Of a stretch of 64,000 nucleotides of DNA, positions 2,940-25,793 are shown in pieces. Every line of letters begins with the position of its first letter. The stretch's first letter is position 1. The DNA lies in contig DAOUJG010000015.1 of assembly GCA_034423015.1 (NCBI GenBank), forward strand, positions 12,104-76,103. The letters run 5' to 3'. A program made the translations under genes and the position numbers. Under the pieces are notes generated by a model. The model saw only the letters and a program-made list of their open reading frames with translations. It did not search any database and was not told where the DNA came from. The DNA is from Dehalococcoidia bacterium (lineage in GTDB: Bacteria; Chloroflexota; Dehalococcoidia; Lucifugimonadales; JAGWBF01).

Positions 2940-4586
2940 TCACCCGCCGCGGAGCGAGAAAGCGGGCTCCAGGCTGGTGATTATCTCCACCAAAGCGGGC
3001 TGCCCCGAGGCCACCACTTGCTGGGCCCGCCGGATGGCGGGGACCACGTCCTCGGGCCTCTCGACCCGCTCGTTGTACCCACCCATGGCCGCGGCCACCT
3101 CGGCGTAGTTGCCGGACAGCCGGCCGGTCCCGTACTCCCGGGCCGCGACCGGGAACCGGTCGGGACCGTAGATGCCCATACCCGAGTTGTTGTTGACGAT
3201 GGTGAGGATGGGAATGCGCTCCCTGATGGCCGTTTCGAAGTCCAGGCCCACCATGCCGAAGGCGGCGTCTCCCATCACGTTCACGGCCAGCTTGTCCGGC
3301 TCCGCCAGCTTGGCGCCCATGGCCAGGCCGAACCCGTATCCCAGCTGGGTGGACTTGCCCCAGCCGATGAAGGTGCGTGGAGCAACAGCCTCGAAGAAGG
3401 GAGACATCTGGTCCCGTGGACTACCGGAGTCGTGGGTTATGATGGTGTTCTTGCGGTCCAGCGTATGCATCAGGTCCCAGACCACCCGGTACGGGTTGAT
3501 GGGCACCTCGTCGGAGGTGAGCTTGGGCATCCACTCCTTCAACCAGCCGTCCTTGACGGCCTTTACCTCCCGGACGACCTCACCGCCCTCCCGGGGAACG
3601 CTCGACCCTCCCTGCGACCGGACCTCCTGAAGGAGCTGTCCCAACACCAGCTTGGAGTCGCCGATGACCGCGTGGTCGGCCCTGTAGTCCTTGTTGATGT
3701 CCTCGGCGTCGTTGGTCGAGTGGATGATGGTCTTGCCGCCGGGTATGCCCACGCCGAAGCTGCCGATGGTCAGGCTGCACCCGATGCCGAACACCAGGTC
3801 GCTCTCCTTCAGGAAGTGCACCACCGGGCCCGTCGTCACGGCGCCGCCGGCGCCAATGGACAGGGCATGGTCCTCGGGAAAGGCGCTCTTGCCCGAGAGG
3901 GTCGTCATCACGGGGGCCTGGAGAAGCTCGGACAACTCCCTCAGCTCGTCCCAAGCCTCGGCGTACAAGATCCCCTGGCCCGCGTGGATGACAGGGCGCC
4001 TGGCAGCCAGCAACGCCCTGGCGACCTCCGCCACGTCTGCAGGGTCCCCGGCCGTCCTCCTGGGCGCGACGGGAACGTAGTGGAAGTCGGCTTCGTCCAG
4101 CTCCGCCGACAGGATGTCGGCGGGCAGGTCCAGCATTACGGGGCTGGGCCTACCCATGCGCAGGTGGCTGAAGGCCCTGCGCATCATCTCGGGCACGCGC
4201 TCGACCAGGTTGATCTGGTCCACCCACTTGGTCACGCCCCTGTAGCTTCGCGTGGGGCTGAAGTTCGGCCGCACACCGGTCCGGGACCGGCCGGCGGCGG
4301 CGGGCAGCAGGAGTATCGGGACGGAGTCCGCGTAGGCCTGGGCCACTCCGGCAAAGGCGTTCTCGGCCCCCGCCTGGGCCTGCATGGTGAAGGCGCCTAT
4401 TCTGCGGCCGCCGGTGGTGCGGCTGAAGCCGTCGGCCATGTTGACGCCCACGCGCTCCTGGCGGAAGATGATGGGCCGGACTCCCGCCACCGCCACGGCC
4501 TCGGTGAGGGTGCTGAAGGGTATGCAGCCGATGAAATCGACTCCCTCCCGCTTCAGGATGTTGGCGATGGCGTCGGCGCCCTTCAT
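2940..4586 (-). CDS. Thiamine-pyrophosphate-dependent enzyme (acetolactate synthase large-subunit-like family)
   Basis: 548 aa. The N-terminal TPP-pyrimidine domain reads MKGADAIANILKREGVDFIGCIP...FRQERVGVNMADGFSR. The C-terminal TPP-binding motif reads GDAAFGMVGLDFETAIRERIPILTIVNNN. A GGAG RBS lies upstream. Confidence 0.85.
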   Translation of the reverse strand: MKGADAIANILKREGVDFIGCIPFSTLTEAVAVAGVRPIIFRQERVGVNMADGFSRTTGGRRIGAFTMQAQAGAENAFAGVAQAYADSVPILLLPAAAGRSRTGVRPNFSPTRSYRGVTKWVDQINLVERVPEMMRRAFSHLRMGRPSPVMLDLPADILSAELDEADFHYVPVAPRRTAGDPADVAEVARALLAARRPVIHAGQGILYAEAWDELRELSELLQAPVMTTLSGKSAFPEDHALSIGAGGAVTTGPVVHFLKESDLVFGIGCSLTIGSFGVGIPGGKTIIHSTNDAEDINKDYRADHAVIGDSKLVLGQLLQEVRSQGGSSVPREGGEVVREVKAVKDGWLKEWMPKLTSDEVPINPYRVVWDLMHTLDRKNTIITHDSGSPRDQMSPFFEAVAPRTFIGWGKSTQLGYGFGLAMGAKLAEPDKLAVNVMGDAAFGMVGLDFETAIRERIPILTIVNNNSGMGIYGPDRFPVAAREYGTGRLSGNYAEVAAAMGGYNERVERPEDVVPAIRRAQQVVASGQPALVEIITSLEPAFSLRGG

Positions 4587-22488: not shown

Positions 22489-22686
22489 AATATCGGTATC
22501 CGGATCGACACCAAGACCTCAGACGCTCTCGGGTTGCAGGACTTGGGGACAGTTGACCACTACGACAACTCATGGGGCCTGCTCTGACGTAGACAGGGTC
22601 ATTCTCAAGATATCGATGGGAACTGCGAGCCTATCCTTCACTGTCTTGCCTGACTCTCTAGGGGACCCCATTTCTCGGGACTGCCT

Positions 22687-23088
22687 CTAGCGCCCAGCCA
22701 TTCTTCTGATCCACCCAACAATGAGCCGCCAGTGGGACAGCCACGCCCAACTGTTTCGCCACGCCTTGCCGAAACGATCTAGGGCTGAACCGGCCTTGAC
22801 GTCGTTTTCCGGGTGTTGTGCCCACCGTACTTGGTTGCGTTGGACCCAATAGTGGGATTGGCAAGGCAAGCTCCAACTGCCGATTGATGGGGACAGGGAC
22901 ACAGATTCCCCATCAAACATCATACTCCAACCGTCCGGGTTCAGTGGTGTGACCACCTCATTGCCGCATCCGCAGCAGCATAGATGCGTCGCCGTCACGA
23001 ATGGTACAGACACGTAGAGCACGCCTTCCACCAGCTCATCCGGAATGTAGTGGACGAATTCGTAGTCAAGAGAGTCCATCTTATTCAT
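22687..23088 (-). CDS. DUF6527-like Cys-rich small protein, third gene of the Ubl operon
   Basis: 133 aa. YEFVHYIPDELVEGVLYVSVPFVTATHLCCCGCGNEVVTPLNPDGWSMMFDGESVSLSPSIGSWSLPCQSHYWV matches my recollection of DUF6527. Its ATG overlaps the E1 stop in an ATGA arrangement (23085-23088). Confidence 0.7.
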   Translation of the reverse strand: MNKMDSLDYEFVHYIPDELVEGVLYVSVPFVTATHLCCCGCGNEVVTPLNPDGWSMMFDGESVSLSPSIGSWSLPCQSHYWVQRNQVRWAQHPENDVKAGSALDRFGKAWRNSWAWLSHWRLIVGWIRRMAGR

Positions 23089-24263
23089 GCTTCATTCACG
23101 CTTGTCATCTCATCCACATCGACTACGTAGAAGCTCGAATGACGACTCTGGCGGTCCTGATAGAACTTCATGAGCTTCTTCCACTTGACCACGGCCATTA
23201 CTGCGTTTAAGGCATTAAGCTCGGCGATCTGGATATTCGTGGCGTATTCGTGCTCGCCTTCCTCATCTGTGTATGGGATCATGGATGCGATGTGTCCTCG
23301 CTCATCGCATGTGCTCGCTGTCACCCTCAGCGTACCCAGCAACGAGCCATCCACCTCGTACACACTCATCCCTGCATCAACAAAAGGGATACCGAACTCC
23401 ACCAGTTTTTGGATCACGAACTTCCTGTCCCGTCCCCTGTCAACGGCAACGAACGCAAAATCCATGTTTCGCAACTCCTCAGCGGTCGATTCGTCGACAT
23501 GGTCGTGGACGAATATGTTGTGTCGCATCTTGGAGTAGATACCGGCAAAGTAATCCGCCTTTCTCTGGGTCACCTTCAAGTCTTCGATGGATGATGCGCC
23601 AGGTGCCCTAAAGGCGTTGTGTTGATAGTACTGATCGCCATCGAACAGGTGAAGTTCTCTCACTGGCGTCTTGGCGACTAGGTCAAGGATATATGAGCCG
23701 GTGCCTCCCAGCCCTACGATGGCCACAGGCCCGCAAGTTAGCTTTTGGGTGACGGCTACGATCTCGGCTCGGCTCGAAGCCGTATCCATATACTTGAACA
23801 CCGAGTCGTCGTTCTGATCCTCTACGACCTTGAACACCTGGGCACTGACGCTAGGGTCGATTCTCTGAGCATGTTCGGAAAGGATGTTCGCGTAGGTAGT
23901 CATCTTCTCGTAGTAGTCTGGGTAACCATAACCATCCGTAGGCTTGTGGGAAAGACGGTGATCCGCCACGAACCCGTTGTCCAGCTGCCAGCGACGGCTT
24001 GCATTGATGACCTTCGTCAGGGGGCGTCCTTCATGGTCGCAAGGTGGGCTGCCCGCGAACAGGACGACATGACCGTCTGGCTTGGCAGTAACGTCGCCGG
24101 CTAGCGTCAGTGTTGATATCAGGACACCGAGCTCGATCTCCCGGGATTCTGTGACATAAGGCACGTGTGCCAACAGAAGGTAGCCGGCTCGGACCTCAAG
24201 CGAGTAGCCCTGGTCTTGAAGCCGCTTGAGGTCGGGGCTACGACTTATCAGTTGTTGAGACAT
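23085..24263 (-). CDS. E2-like N-terminal domain fused to a ThiF/E1-type adenylyltransferase
   Basis: 392 aa. The Rossmann motif is VAIVGLGGTGSYILDLVAKTPVRELHLFDGDQYYQHNAFR, followed by FAFVAVDRGRDRK (the E1/ThiF/MoeB adenylation fold). The N-terminal ~135 aa (…GYLLLAHVPYVT…GHVVLFAGSPPCDHEGRPL…) have a His-x9-Cys arrangement reminiscent of UBC-fold prokaryotic E2s that occur fused to E1. Confidence 0.8.
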   Translation of the reverse strand: MSQQLISRSPDLKRLQDQGYSLEVRAGYLLLAHVPYVTESREIELGVLISTLTLAGDVTAKPDGHVVLFAGSPPCDHEGRPLTKVINASRRWQLDNGFVADHRLSHKPTDGYGYPDYYEKMTTYANILSEHAQRIDPSVSAQVFKVVEDQNDDSVFKYMDTASSRAEIVAVTQKLTCGPVAIVGLGGTGSYILDLVAKTPVRELHLFDGDQYYQHNAFRAPGASSIEDLKVTQRKADYFAGIYSKMRHNIFVHDHVDESTAEELRNMDFAFVAVDRGRDRKFVIQKLVEFGIPFVDAGMSVYEVDGSLLGTLRVTASTCDERGHIASMIPYTDEEGEHEYATNIQIAELNALNAVMAVVKWKKLMKFYQDRQSRHSSFYVVDVDEMTSVNEA

Positions 24264-24510
24264 TAAAGACCGTCCCGTCGTGAACCTTCACGCTTCCACC
24301 TTCAGCGAGCCTTCCACTTGGGGGCCGTCCAGCGCCGTTGCTGTAGAGCACGTGGAAGATTATGTTGGGGTTAGACGGGACTGGGTCATAGGCGAGCCCT
24401 ACGACTTGGTCGAAGGAGATCTCCCCATCAGAGGAGAGAGTCTTCAGAGAAACCATCTTCTCCCGCCCGTTCACTATAATCTTGACCGTATCCTTGTCAG
24501 CCACCATCAT
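24238..24510 (-). CDS. Single beta-grasp ubiquitin-like protein (Multiubiquitin-domain-like)
   Basis: MMVADKDTVKIIVNGREKMVSLKTLSSDGEISFDQVVGLAYDP...GGSVKVHDGTVFNVSTTDKS follows the I-V-N-G...(I/V)(S/T).....(V/I)..LA.......G..F pattern of the Multiubiquitin family. An AAGGAG RBS lies 4 nt upstream of the ATGATG. The 3' end overlaps the E1 start by 26 nt. Confidence 0.7.
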   Translation of the reverse strand: MMVADKDTVKIIVNGREKMVSLKTLSSDGEISFDQVVGLAYDPVPSNPNIIFHVLYSNGAGRPPSGRLAEGGSVKVHDGTVFNVSTTDKS

Positions 24511-24539
24511 CAGACTCCTTTTGTGTGTCCCACAAAATA

Positions 24540-24567
24540 TTGACAGTACCAAGCCAGGTACTATATA
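24540..24567 (+). promoter_or_regulatory. Sigma70-like promoter for the HTH/ImmA genes (TTGACA - 16 nt - TATATA) with an embedded AGTACC-N6-GGTACT inverted repeat
   Basis: TTGACA at 24540-24545 and TATATA at 24562-24567. The inverted repeat at 24545-24562 occupies the spacer. Confidence 0.5.
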
Positions 24568-24571
24568 CATA

Positions 24572-24600
24572 ATGATAATGCCGACCATCCATCTTGTCAA
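24572..24600 (-). promoter_or_regulatory. Sigma70-like promoter for the Ubl operon (TTGACA - 17 nt - TATCAT)
   Basis: On the minus strand, TTGACA is the reverse complement of 24595-24600 and TATCAT is the reverse complement of 24572-24577. The two -10 boxes of the divergent promoters are only 4 nt apart. Confidence 0.5.
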
Positions 24601-24642
24601 CTCATAGCGGTACAGTGTCCCATTTCTCGTACAGGAGGCGCG

Positions 24643-25122
24643 ATGGACCCAATCAGGCTTGATCTCAACGACCTGGGGCGTCTCGTCGTGGCAGAGCGAA
24701 ACCGCAGAGGGATGAGTCTTCGAGAAGCGGCTCTTGCAACAGGAATACCCTTCAACACGCTAGCGCGCGTAGAGAAGGGTCACGTCCCCGACCTCCCAAA
24801 ATTCAAGAGGCTCGTCGAATGGTGTGGGGCTGATATCCGACAGTTCTTTGAACCCCAAGAGAAGGTGACGGCTACCACGGATGTCATCGCTGAGCACCTT
24901 CGTGCCGACCGCAACCTTCCCCCTGAAGCCGCAGAGCGGATCGTAGGAATCGTCAGCGAACTCTATCACACGCTTGCACGCCCCCAAGCAATCGCTGCCG
25001 TGCATTTGCGGGCTGCGAAAACCCTCCGTCCAGACGCAGCTCATGTCCTGGGATTGTTGCTTAACGACATGAATGAAGCACTAGTGGAGGAGCTCGTCGA
25101 TGGCCCTGCGGAGAGGATTTAA
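24643..25122 (+). CDS. XRE-family helix-turn-helix transcriptional regulator (ImmR/CapH-like)
   Basis: RRGMSLREAALATGIPFNTLARVEKG is a canonical HTH_3 motif. AGGAGG RBS. It is followed by an overlapping ImmA-type protease gene. Confidence 0.85.
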   Translation: MDPIRLDLNDLGRLVVAERNRRGMSLREAALATGIPFNTLARVEKGHVPDLPKFKRLVEWCGADIRQFFEPQEKVTATTDVIAEHLRADRNLPPEAAERIVGIVSELYHTLARPQAIAAVHLRAAKTLRPDAAHVLGLLLNDMNEALVEELVDGPAERI

Positions 25123-25678
25123 ATCCGAAGCCGAGAGAATCGCTAGGAGTGTGCGGACAGACCTAGGAATCAGTGCGTCTCAATCTGTCACTCCCGAGAT
25201 GCTCGCCGATTTGCTTGGCATTGAAGTCAGAGCAGGAGATGAACTGATACCACGCAAGAGATTTGTCGAACTAGAAAAAGTTCAGCCTGGGGCGTTCTCG
25301 GCATGTACGTTCCGGCCGTCTACTGATCGCGTCGTCGTCGTATACAATCCGCTCTCCGCCGAATCGCGCCGGCGGAGCGATCTGGCCCATGAACTTGCGC
25401 ATACTCTCCTCCAGCACGAGTTGAGCCGGATAGAGAAGCTTGGCGATGTCACCTTCCTCTCGTGTGATCCGACTCAGGAAGAAGAGGCTGCCTGGTTGTC
25501 TGGATGTCTCCTTCTACCCAGAGCATTGCTCTTGGCGGAGGTACACAGTGGATCAAGCGCGAAAGATATCGCACGAAGATGTGGGGTCAGCGAGGCCATG
25601 GCACGGTACAGACTAAATGTCACTGGAGTGCTCAGGCAAAAACAGGCGCTCGAGAAGAGGAGCCGTTTTCGAGAATAG
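25100..25678 (+). CDS. ImmA/IrrE-family zinc metallopeptidase (CapP-like)
   Basis: The HEXXH motif occurs in RRRSDLAHELAHTLLQHE, with a downstream EEEAAWLSGCLLLP segment typical of ImmA/IrrE (M78). It overlaps the HTH gene by 23 nt. Confidence 0.85.
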   Translation: MALRRGFKSEAERIARSVRTDLGISASQSVTPEMLADLLGIEVRAGDELIPRKRFVELEKVQPGAFSACTFRPSTDRVVVVYNPLSAESRRRSDLAHELAHTLLQHELSRIEKLGDVTFLSCDPTQEEEAAWLSGCLLLPRALLLAEVHSGSSAKDIARRCGVSEAMARYRLNVTGVLRQKQALEKRSRFRE

Positions 25679-25793
25679 GAGGCGTGGATGCCAAATCTTG
25701 GCGCGGCTGTTCCCTCCGATGAATCTGTCTCAATTCGACCACCGGCATCAACGCCCGCGAGTCGTCCCTCGGAAAAGGGGGATAAAGCACTGC

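Follow-up and report, generated by a model that had tools for sequence, protein, structure and literature searches.

The Bub system was described by Ye, Gong, Chambers and Corbett (bioRxiv 10.1101/2024.11.21.623953; PDB 9ea4-9eav), and crystal structures of its Type I enzymes (9ea4, 9ea5, 9ea8, 9eae and 9eav) became public in September 2025. A Type II Bub operon is composed of BubA, BubBD and BubE, often accompanied by CapH and CapP, and both the E1 and the E2 of Bub are without catalytic cysteines, the E1s having no Cys in the crossover loop (bioRxiv 10.1101/2024.11.21.623953). Type II BubBD possesses instead an invariant E2 Ser together with an invariant Lys and an invariant His, and an invariant Tyr in the crossover loop. 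Each of the substitutions S106A, Y342F and R219A in E. coli BubBD eliminates the BubA-BubA conjugate, and with Y370F in Citrobacter BubCD or S333A/H335A in BubB conjugation is lost both in vitro and in cells (bioRxiv 10.1101/2024.11.21.623953). From these mutants and from the structures, the authors inferred oxyester intermediates on the E2 Ser and on the crossover-loop Tyr of the E1, and in their AlphaFold 3 models of the E. coli BubBD homodimer the E2 active site of one protomer lies beside the crossover loop of the other (bioRxiv 10.1101/2024.11.21.623953). The identity of the nucleophile, which the original prediction had considered open for the gene analysed here, was therefore settled experimentally for the family in 2024, and the Ser-based oxyester chemistry that it had mentioned for diverged bacterial pathways is the published family mechanism (bioRxiv 10.1101/2024.11.21.623953).

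The window, that is the whole stretch of 64,000 nucleotides of Dehalococcoidia DNA that was analysed, contains this gene as an open reading frame with an ATG start on the minus strand, present in the window's ORF listing (Table 1). The encoded protein matches Pfam DUF6791 over residues 10-161 (E 1e-56) and ThiF over residues 172-384 (E 1.9e-13), and it scores 538.9 bits against the NCBIfam equivalog NF004805, whose cutoff is 352. More than 7,900 proteins carrying both the DUF6791 and the ThiF domain were returned by a word-indexed search, and when 1.84 billion cluster representatives were scanned exhaustively with HMMER, 510 homologues were found at E <= 1e-30. Because of the domain matches, the score above the NF004805 cutoff and the more than 7,900 homologues, bubBD is a genuine and widespread gene, and a chance ORF is excluded. 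The fusion of an N-terminal E2-like domain to an E1, as proposed from the sequence, is borne out by the DUF6791 and ThiF matches, by NF004805 and by the published BubBD family.

Table 1. Features of the Bub locus, with positions in the window, strand and supporting evidence
Feature	Position	Strand	Evidence
bubE, DUF6527 Ser-His protease, C4 zinc site	22687..23088	-	Pfam DUF6527 E 1.5e-24
bubBD, E2-E1 fusion, 392 aa	23085..24263	-	ORF; Pfam DUF6791 + ThiF; NCBIfam NF004805
E1 adenylation domain, residues 168-392, GLGGTGS loop, D208, R219, K235, D296	23085..23762	-	Pfam ThiF; Foldseek; hhalign
Tyr340, putative E1 crossover-loop nucleophile (Ubl~Tyr oxyester)	23244..23246	-	Conservation; alignment to Y370
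Cys319, start of crossover loop, not conserved	23307..23309	-	Column P 62, A 12, G 10 (146 representatives)
Arg219, adenylation 'arginine finger'	23607..23609	-	146/146; alignment to R227
Cys177, not conserved	23733..23735	-	Column G 45, N 19, L 16, V 10 (146 representatives)
E2-like domain, residues 1-145	23829..24263	-	AF2 model, Foldseek, hhalign
Lys107, near-invariant E2 active-site partner (S-x-K)	23943..23945	-	134/146; at Type I H335 position in extended hhalign
Ser105, putative E2 catalytic nucleophile (Ubl~Ser oxyester), LSHKP motif	23949..23951	-	Conservation; published invariant Ser
Cys75 (GSPPC)	24039..24041	-	74/75 close, 101/146 family
His65, E2 active-site partner	24069..24071	-	146/146; published Type II invariant His
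bubA, single beta-grasp Ubl, 90 aa from ATG 24510, ends ...TTDKS	24238..24510	-	Pfam Multi_ubiq E 4e-11
capH-like HTH repressor, divergent from operon	24643..25122	+	Pfam HTH_3/HTH_31
capP-like ImmA/IrrE (M78) metallopeptidase	25100..25678	+	Pfam Peptidase_M78 E 2e-17; PADLOC capP E 6.9e-10

The sequence features that characterize Type II BubBD are found in the window protein. E2-like and ThiF/E1 domains share one chain of about 390 residues; the adenylation site is intact in its Gly-rich loop, Arg finger and Asp/Lys residues; the E2 Ser is accompanied by Lys and His (S105 in 144/146, K107 in 134/146 and H65 in 146/146 family representatives); and the crossover-loop Tyr is kept while the Cys of the loop is not conserved. 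We are highly confident that this is an ordinary member of the known Type II Bub ('6E.2/DUF6527') system. The protein, whose full-length AF2 model has a pLDDT of 86.8, contains exactly three cysteines, C75 in GHVVLFAGSPPCDHEGRPL, C177 in QKLTCGPVAIVG and C319 in TASTCDERGHIA; the few cysteines first noticed, one in the E2 part and two in the E1 part, are these three, with their motifs as quoted. Concerning its relatives in E. coli, the Type II protein WP_001271380.1, which is distinct from the mutated WP_063617865.1, is 45% identical to the window BubBD over 383 residues and carries the F-S-S-K-P motif, the P-C motif and the loop Tyr. By motif and near-identical numbering, S105 and Y340 of the window protein would correspond to S106 and Y342 of E. 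coli BubBD.

The genes around bubBD were compared with the published operon. A Multi_ubiq gene lies upstream and a DUF6527 gene downstream, with no JAB peptidase, as in Type II Bub operons. The upstream gene, bubA, overlaps the start of bubBD by 26 nt; BubA is found upstream of BubBD in 77 of 80 related genome loci, and all 77 BubA sequences have a C-terminal Ser. BubE has the Ser-His dyad and the C4 zinc site expected of this protease: in the alignment, S68, H79, C37, C39 and C41 are each present in 82/82 sequences and C76 in 81/82, and these residues align to S92, H102 and C57/C59/C61/C99 of a Type I BubE. In 77-80 of the 80 related loci the three genes follow one another as they do here, first the Ubl, then the fusion protein and then the DUF6527 protein (BubA-BubBD-BubE). 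By gene content, the divergent HTH gene and the M78/ImmA-type peptidase gene would constitute a CapH/CapP pair, and such a pair accompanies the operon in 13 of the 80 loci.

The GC content of the cassette is 57-58%, against 65-69% in its surroundings. The closest relative is found in a Dehalococcoidia MAG, at 85% identity, and it shares with the window only the segment 22671-25683 and nothing outside it; since this segment is shared without its flanks, the five genes (bubA, bubBD, bubE, capH and capP) travel as one cassette of 3 kb. No integrase or tRNA was found near the cassette in the window. The gene for E. coli WP_001271380.1, present in 3 genomes of the collection searched, sits in an integrase island at a tRNA-Leu. 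This is a typical Type II Bub cassette, of a system that was already known.

The E1 domain is homologous to that of the Type I enzyme. In a Foldseek search with the model of the full BubBD, the best PDB matches were Citrobacter BubCD 9eav and 9ea5, with E about 1e-13, followed by MccB, UBA5 and ThiF. A Type I operon for comparison was taken from an IncHI2 plasmid, where it was located through a BubCD fragment in the PDB alignment, and its BubCD keeps the Citrobacter numbering (E28, D104, R227, Y370). Weak matches to BubE on plasmids were considered as Type I operons and rejected, being divergent Type II operons or unannotated DNA. When the Type II family profile was aligned by hhalign with the BubCD of the IncHI2 plasmid (probability 97.3%, E 1.6e-11), Y340 fell on Y370 and R219 on R227.

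Conservation was evaluated in a close set of 75 homologues (55-85% identity) and in a broad set of 146 family representatives (38-54% identity). In the E1 part, R219 is present in 75/75 close homologues and in all the 146 representatives, for each of G184, G186, G187, G189, D208, K235 and D296 the count is 142 or more out of 146, and Y340 is found in 74/75 and 144/146. The original prediction had seen in one of the E1 cysteines a possible nucleophile of the crossover-loop type. C319 would be the candidate, as the catalytic Cys of a UBA5/ThiF-like E1, because it stands at the start of the crossover loop and within the region (residues about 318-346) where minimal E1s have their Cys. Its column, however, is occupied by other residues in the family (Table 1), and even among the 75 close relatives, where Asp (34) and Pro (19) are found, Cys is rare. 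The conserved residue of the loop is Y340, aligned to the catalytic Y370, and Bub E1s are known to be without loop cysteines (bioRxiv 10.1101/2024.11.21.623953). We therefore regard a catalytic C319 as extremely improbable; neither C319 nor C177 is conserved, and Y340 is the probable loop nucleophile.

The identification of the N-terminal domain as an E2 is a different case. The AF2 model of the isolated domain is of high quality (pLDDT 94.4), and its elements, in order, are alpha1, a four-strand meander, a hairpin (86-105) that ends at S105 and a long helix (117-135), which in the model is the order expected for a UBC-like fold. The best Foldseek match was Atg10, with a non-significant E of 0.21 and a TM-score of 0.39; Ubc13, UbcH5c and HSPC150 gave the highest TM-scores (0.34-0.39), also non-significant, most matches other than E2s being at 0.28 or below. 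Nothing was found at E <= 0.001 in this search, and BubB was outside the top 50. When the N-terminal 134 aa served as a query against the sequences of PDB chains, no match appeared even at E <= 10, and Citrobacter BubB was missed by a search with the family profile. Type I BubB belongs to Pfam Prok-E2_E; compared by hhalign, its profile and that of the Type II N-terminal domain gave a non-significant result (probability 0.5%, E 0.12). With relaxed extension the alignment, although non-significant, is collinear over nearly all of both domains, placing S105 on S333, K107 on H335 and P-P-C75 on P-P-L, which is consistent with homology but short of proof. The equivalence of S105 and S333 would accordingly have its basis in this non-significant collinear alignment, in conservation and in the published work. 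Our independent tests are only suggestive of a UBC fold in the window BubBD, and the E2 assignment of its N-terminal domain rests mainly on the published structures and predictions.

These results bear on a reading in which the N-terminal domain has no catalytic role and serves as an adaptor, the whole protein being a ThiF/MoeB-like adenylase that acts in sulfur transfer or in the modification of peptides. The Pfam name is still DUF6791, Foldseek and hhalign gave no significant link to E2 families, and 6E E2-like proteins were predicted to be inactive by earlier bioinformatics, as cited in the literature. An adaptor is nevertheless difficult to reconcile with the set of Ser, His and Lys conserved in the domain, with its succession of helix, four-strand meander, hairpin and long helix, whose best TM-scores are with Atg10 and E2s, with an operon in which a Ubl and a protease specific for the Ubl always accompany it, and with the loss of conjugation in E. 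coli BubBD S106A (bioRxiv 10.1101/2024.11.21.623953). We consider this reading very unlikely.

Within the E2-like domain, the original prediction had pointed to the Cys of GSPPC as a candidate nucleophile. From our alignments a different residue emerges: S105, in the LSHKP motif, is present in all the 75 close homologues and in 144 of the 146 representatives, the remaining 2 having Cys. H65 is invariant in both sets (75/75 and 146/146), and K120 is invariant in the close homologues. C75 is kept in 74 of the 75 close relatives (99%) but only in 101 of the 146 representatives (69%), where its substitutes are H (22), Y (6), R (5), S (5) and F (4), with A, T and L also occurring. On a FastTree phylogeny of the 146 representatives its column has undergone at least 33 changes between Cys and other residues, and no compensating change was found among these sequences at nearby columns. 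The Ser residue preceding this Cys, which had seemed conserved, is S72, and in the family this position is occupied by E, D, G or S. Thus, among the Cys and Ser residues originally named, homologue alignment finds C75 partly kept, while C177, C319 and S72 are not conserved.

Two properties could still recommend C75 as the E2 nucleophile, or as an obligatory thioester relay, in the clade of the window. Its presence in 74/75 homologues at 55-85% identity leaves room for a clade-specific role, and it follows H65 by 10 residues. In canonical E2s, the His and the Cys of HPN...C are likewise separated by 10 residues, which is a resemblance only. The HPN motif is absent here and the sole Cys of the domain is labile; the window protein was therefore rejected as a canonical thioester E2. 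The position of C75 also differs: helix alpha2 begins 42 residues after it, but only about 12 residues after the canonical E2 Cys and after S105. Moreover, besides the losses across the representatives, the C75 column falls on the Leu of PPL in Type I BubB in the non-significant hhalign alignment. WP_001271380.1 has the same PC motif, and if the mutated WP_063617865.1 keeps this Cys, the S106A result means that Cys cannot replace Ser. A nucleophilic C75 is therefore highly improbable in our estimate. All three of the readings considered so far, catalytic C319, adaptor domain and catalytic C75, are disfavoured by the conservation data and by the published mutants.

C75 may have a more modest function, either as a second-shell helper of the active site (oxyanion or proton relay) or as a thioester stage, peculiar to the clade, on the way from Tyr340 to Ser105; we give this a small chance. 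Some observations belong to this subject. The PPC loop aligns, non-significantly, with the PPL loop of Type I BubB, which stands where canonical E2s have their HPN loop; most of the substitutes for C75 in other clades (His, Tyr, Arg and Ser) can donate hydrogen bonds; and the two members with Cys at the Ser105 position may be taken as a sign of a family that can switch between oxyester and thioester chemistry.

The most likely mechanism of the window BubBD, which we propose with strong confidence, is an oxyester route via Y340 and then S105, and as a part of this explanation we consider it very probable that C75, C177 and C319 are all non-nucleophiles in catalysis. The C-terminal ThiF-type domain, with its Gly-rich loop, D208, R219, K235 and D296, would adenylate the C-terminus of BubA. 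The hydroxyl of Tyr340, in the flexible crossover loop, would attack the adenylate and form a Ubl~Tyr oxyester, and the Ubl would then move to Ser105 of the E2-like domain, helped by His65 and Lys107. Since in the published models the E2 site lies beside the loop of the opposite protomer, the receiving E2 domain would probably be that of the other protomer in a homodimer, with transfer in trans within the dimer; the strictly intramolecular transfer expected at first from the fusion is to be revised in this sense. From the E2 Ser, the Ubl would be passed to a target amine. BubE, through Ser68 and His79, may strip the conjugates, and CapH and CapP may keep the operon silent until DNA is damaged or phage causes stress. 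Added to the family membership, the residue conservation, the alignment of E1 residues to the Type I enzyme and the operon context, which this analysis establishes, the published data suggest the same behaviour, in-trans geometry and regulation for the window protein.

With this locus the Bub system is extended to a high-GC Chloroflexota genome; otherwise the value of the result is mostly one of correct annotation. The conservation data have their own use, as they show the Ser, Tyr, His and Arg residues to be maintained in a diverse set of 146 representatives, whereas the tempting Cys is labile.

Comparing the locus with known systems, the nearest is the Type II Bub system of E. coli ZDHYS365 (WP_063617865.1), whose BubBD has the same E2-E1 architecture of about 390 aa, the same E2 Ser, Lys and His, the same loop Tyr and the same adenylation Arg (S106/R219/Y342, against S105/R219/Y340 in the window). 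The operon, formed by BubA, BubBD and BubE without a JAB peptidase, and its association with CapH/CapP are also the same. The differences are in BubA, which has one beta-grasp domain in the window (90 aa) and three in E. coli Type II, and in the host, the window cassette belonging to a high-GC Chloroflexota genome and its BubBD being about 45% identical to the E. coli-type WP_001271380.1.

In Type I Bub, represented by Citrobacter BubCD (JAB-E1) and BubB (Prok-E2_E), the E1 domain is homologous to that of the window, S333 lies, like S105, about 12 residues before the last helix, and BubE has identical catalytic and zinc residues. However, the fusions differ, Type I joining its E2 with the Ubl and its E1 with the JAB peptidase, while in the window E2 and E1 form one chain; the partners of the E2 Ser are His and Asp (S-x-H, D299) in the former and Lys and His (S-x-K, H65) in the latter, and the similarity of the two E2 sequences is too low to be detected (hhalign probability 0.5%).

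Cap2 of Type II CBASS has the same order of E2 and E1 in the fusion as the window BubBD, and both Atg10 and Cap2 are non-canonical E2s that do not have the two C-terminal helices, as the Bub paper says of Cap2. Unlike the window protein, Cap2 and Atg7/Atg10/Atg3 use thioesters on catalytic cysteines of E1 and E2. An identification of the window protein as Cap2 was rejected, since the PADLOC E1-E2 models cover only residues about 140-290, with E 5.6e-07 at best, and the conserved Cys is absent. Finally, the minimal homodimeric E1-like adenylases UBA5, ThiF and MoeB have in common with the window protein the adenylation fold and the nucleotide-binding residues, and UBA5 itself is matched by the window BubBD at E 7e-4 with phmmer and at 1e-7 in a profile search; but where UBA5 has a Cys in its crossover loop (C250), the family of the window protein has a conserved Tyr.

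The last residue of BubA, the Ubl of the Type II cassette, is Ser and not Gly in all related Type II loci (77/77), where the consensus reads T-D-K-S, and an E. coli Type II BubA likewise terminates with Ser (...RTIQS). Ser would then be the residue that is adenylated in Type II Ubls, provided that the tail does not undergo trimming. The accessible text of the two Bub preprints contains no mention of a C-terminal Ser.

In nearly all loci the final 23-26 nt of bubA run into the start of bubBD, the gene of the E2-E1 fusion. At the other end, the longest bubA ORF opens with a TTG and carries 30 additional hydrophobic residues; this extension is probably not translated, because the Pfam Multi_ubiq match begins at residue 39 of the TTG-started ORF and matches to related BubA proteins start near the ATG at 24510.

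Coordinates of bubA features and of the cassette
Feature	Window	Loci L001-L080 (related genome loci)
bubA C-terminal end / bubBD overlap	24238-24263	about 3501-3523
bubA N-terminal extension from TTG at 24600	24511-24600	
Five-gene cassette	22671-25683	

Two cluster representatives of the BubBD family from outside the window, P0186 and P0190, have Cys in place of the otherwise invariant E2 Ser (motifs LCSKP and LCNMP), and both retain C75, the Cys of GSPPC, and the crossover-loop Tyr. The E2 step of these natural Ser-to-Cys variants could proceed through a thioester.

The GC content of the five-gene cassette is 57-58%, against a background of 65-69%. The cassette is also the sole stretch common to the window and its closest relative, a Dehalococcoidia MAG (protein identity 85%), and its flanks are unrelated between the two. 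The DNA adjoining it showed no integrase, tRNA or repeats. In the plasmid collection, Type II BubBD homologues were found on 129 plasmids, with Acinetobacter the source of 45, and Type I BubCD-like genes on 127, including IncHI2 mcr-9 plasmids of Enterobacteriaceae. The annotation of these plasmid genes goes no further than "ThiF family adenylyltransferase" and "multiubiquitin domain-containing protein", and BubE is already called a "ubiquitination-like system serine protease family protein" in one recent RefSeq record from E. coli.

Concerning the E2-like domains, that of Type II is still carried in Pfam as a DUF (DUF6791), and HMM-HMM comparison gave no link between it and the Prok-E2_E domain of Type I (probability 0.5%). 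The two domains have in common a pattern that is collinear from end to end.
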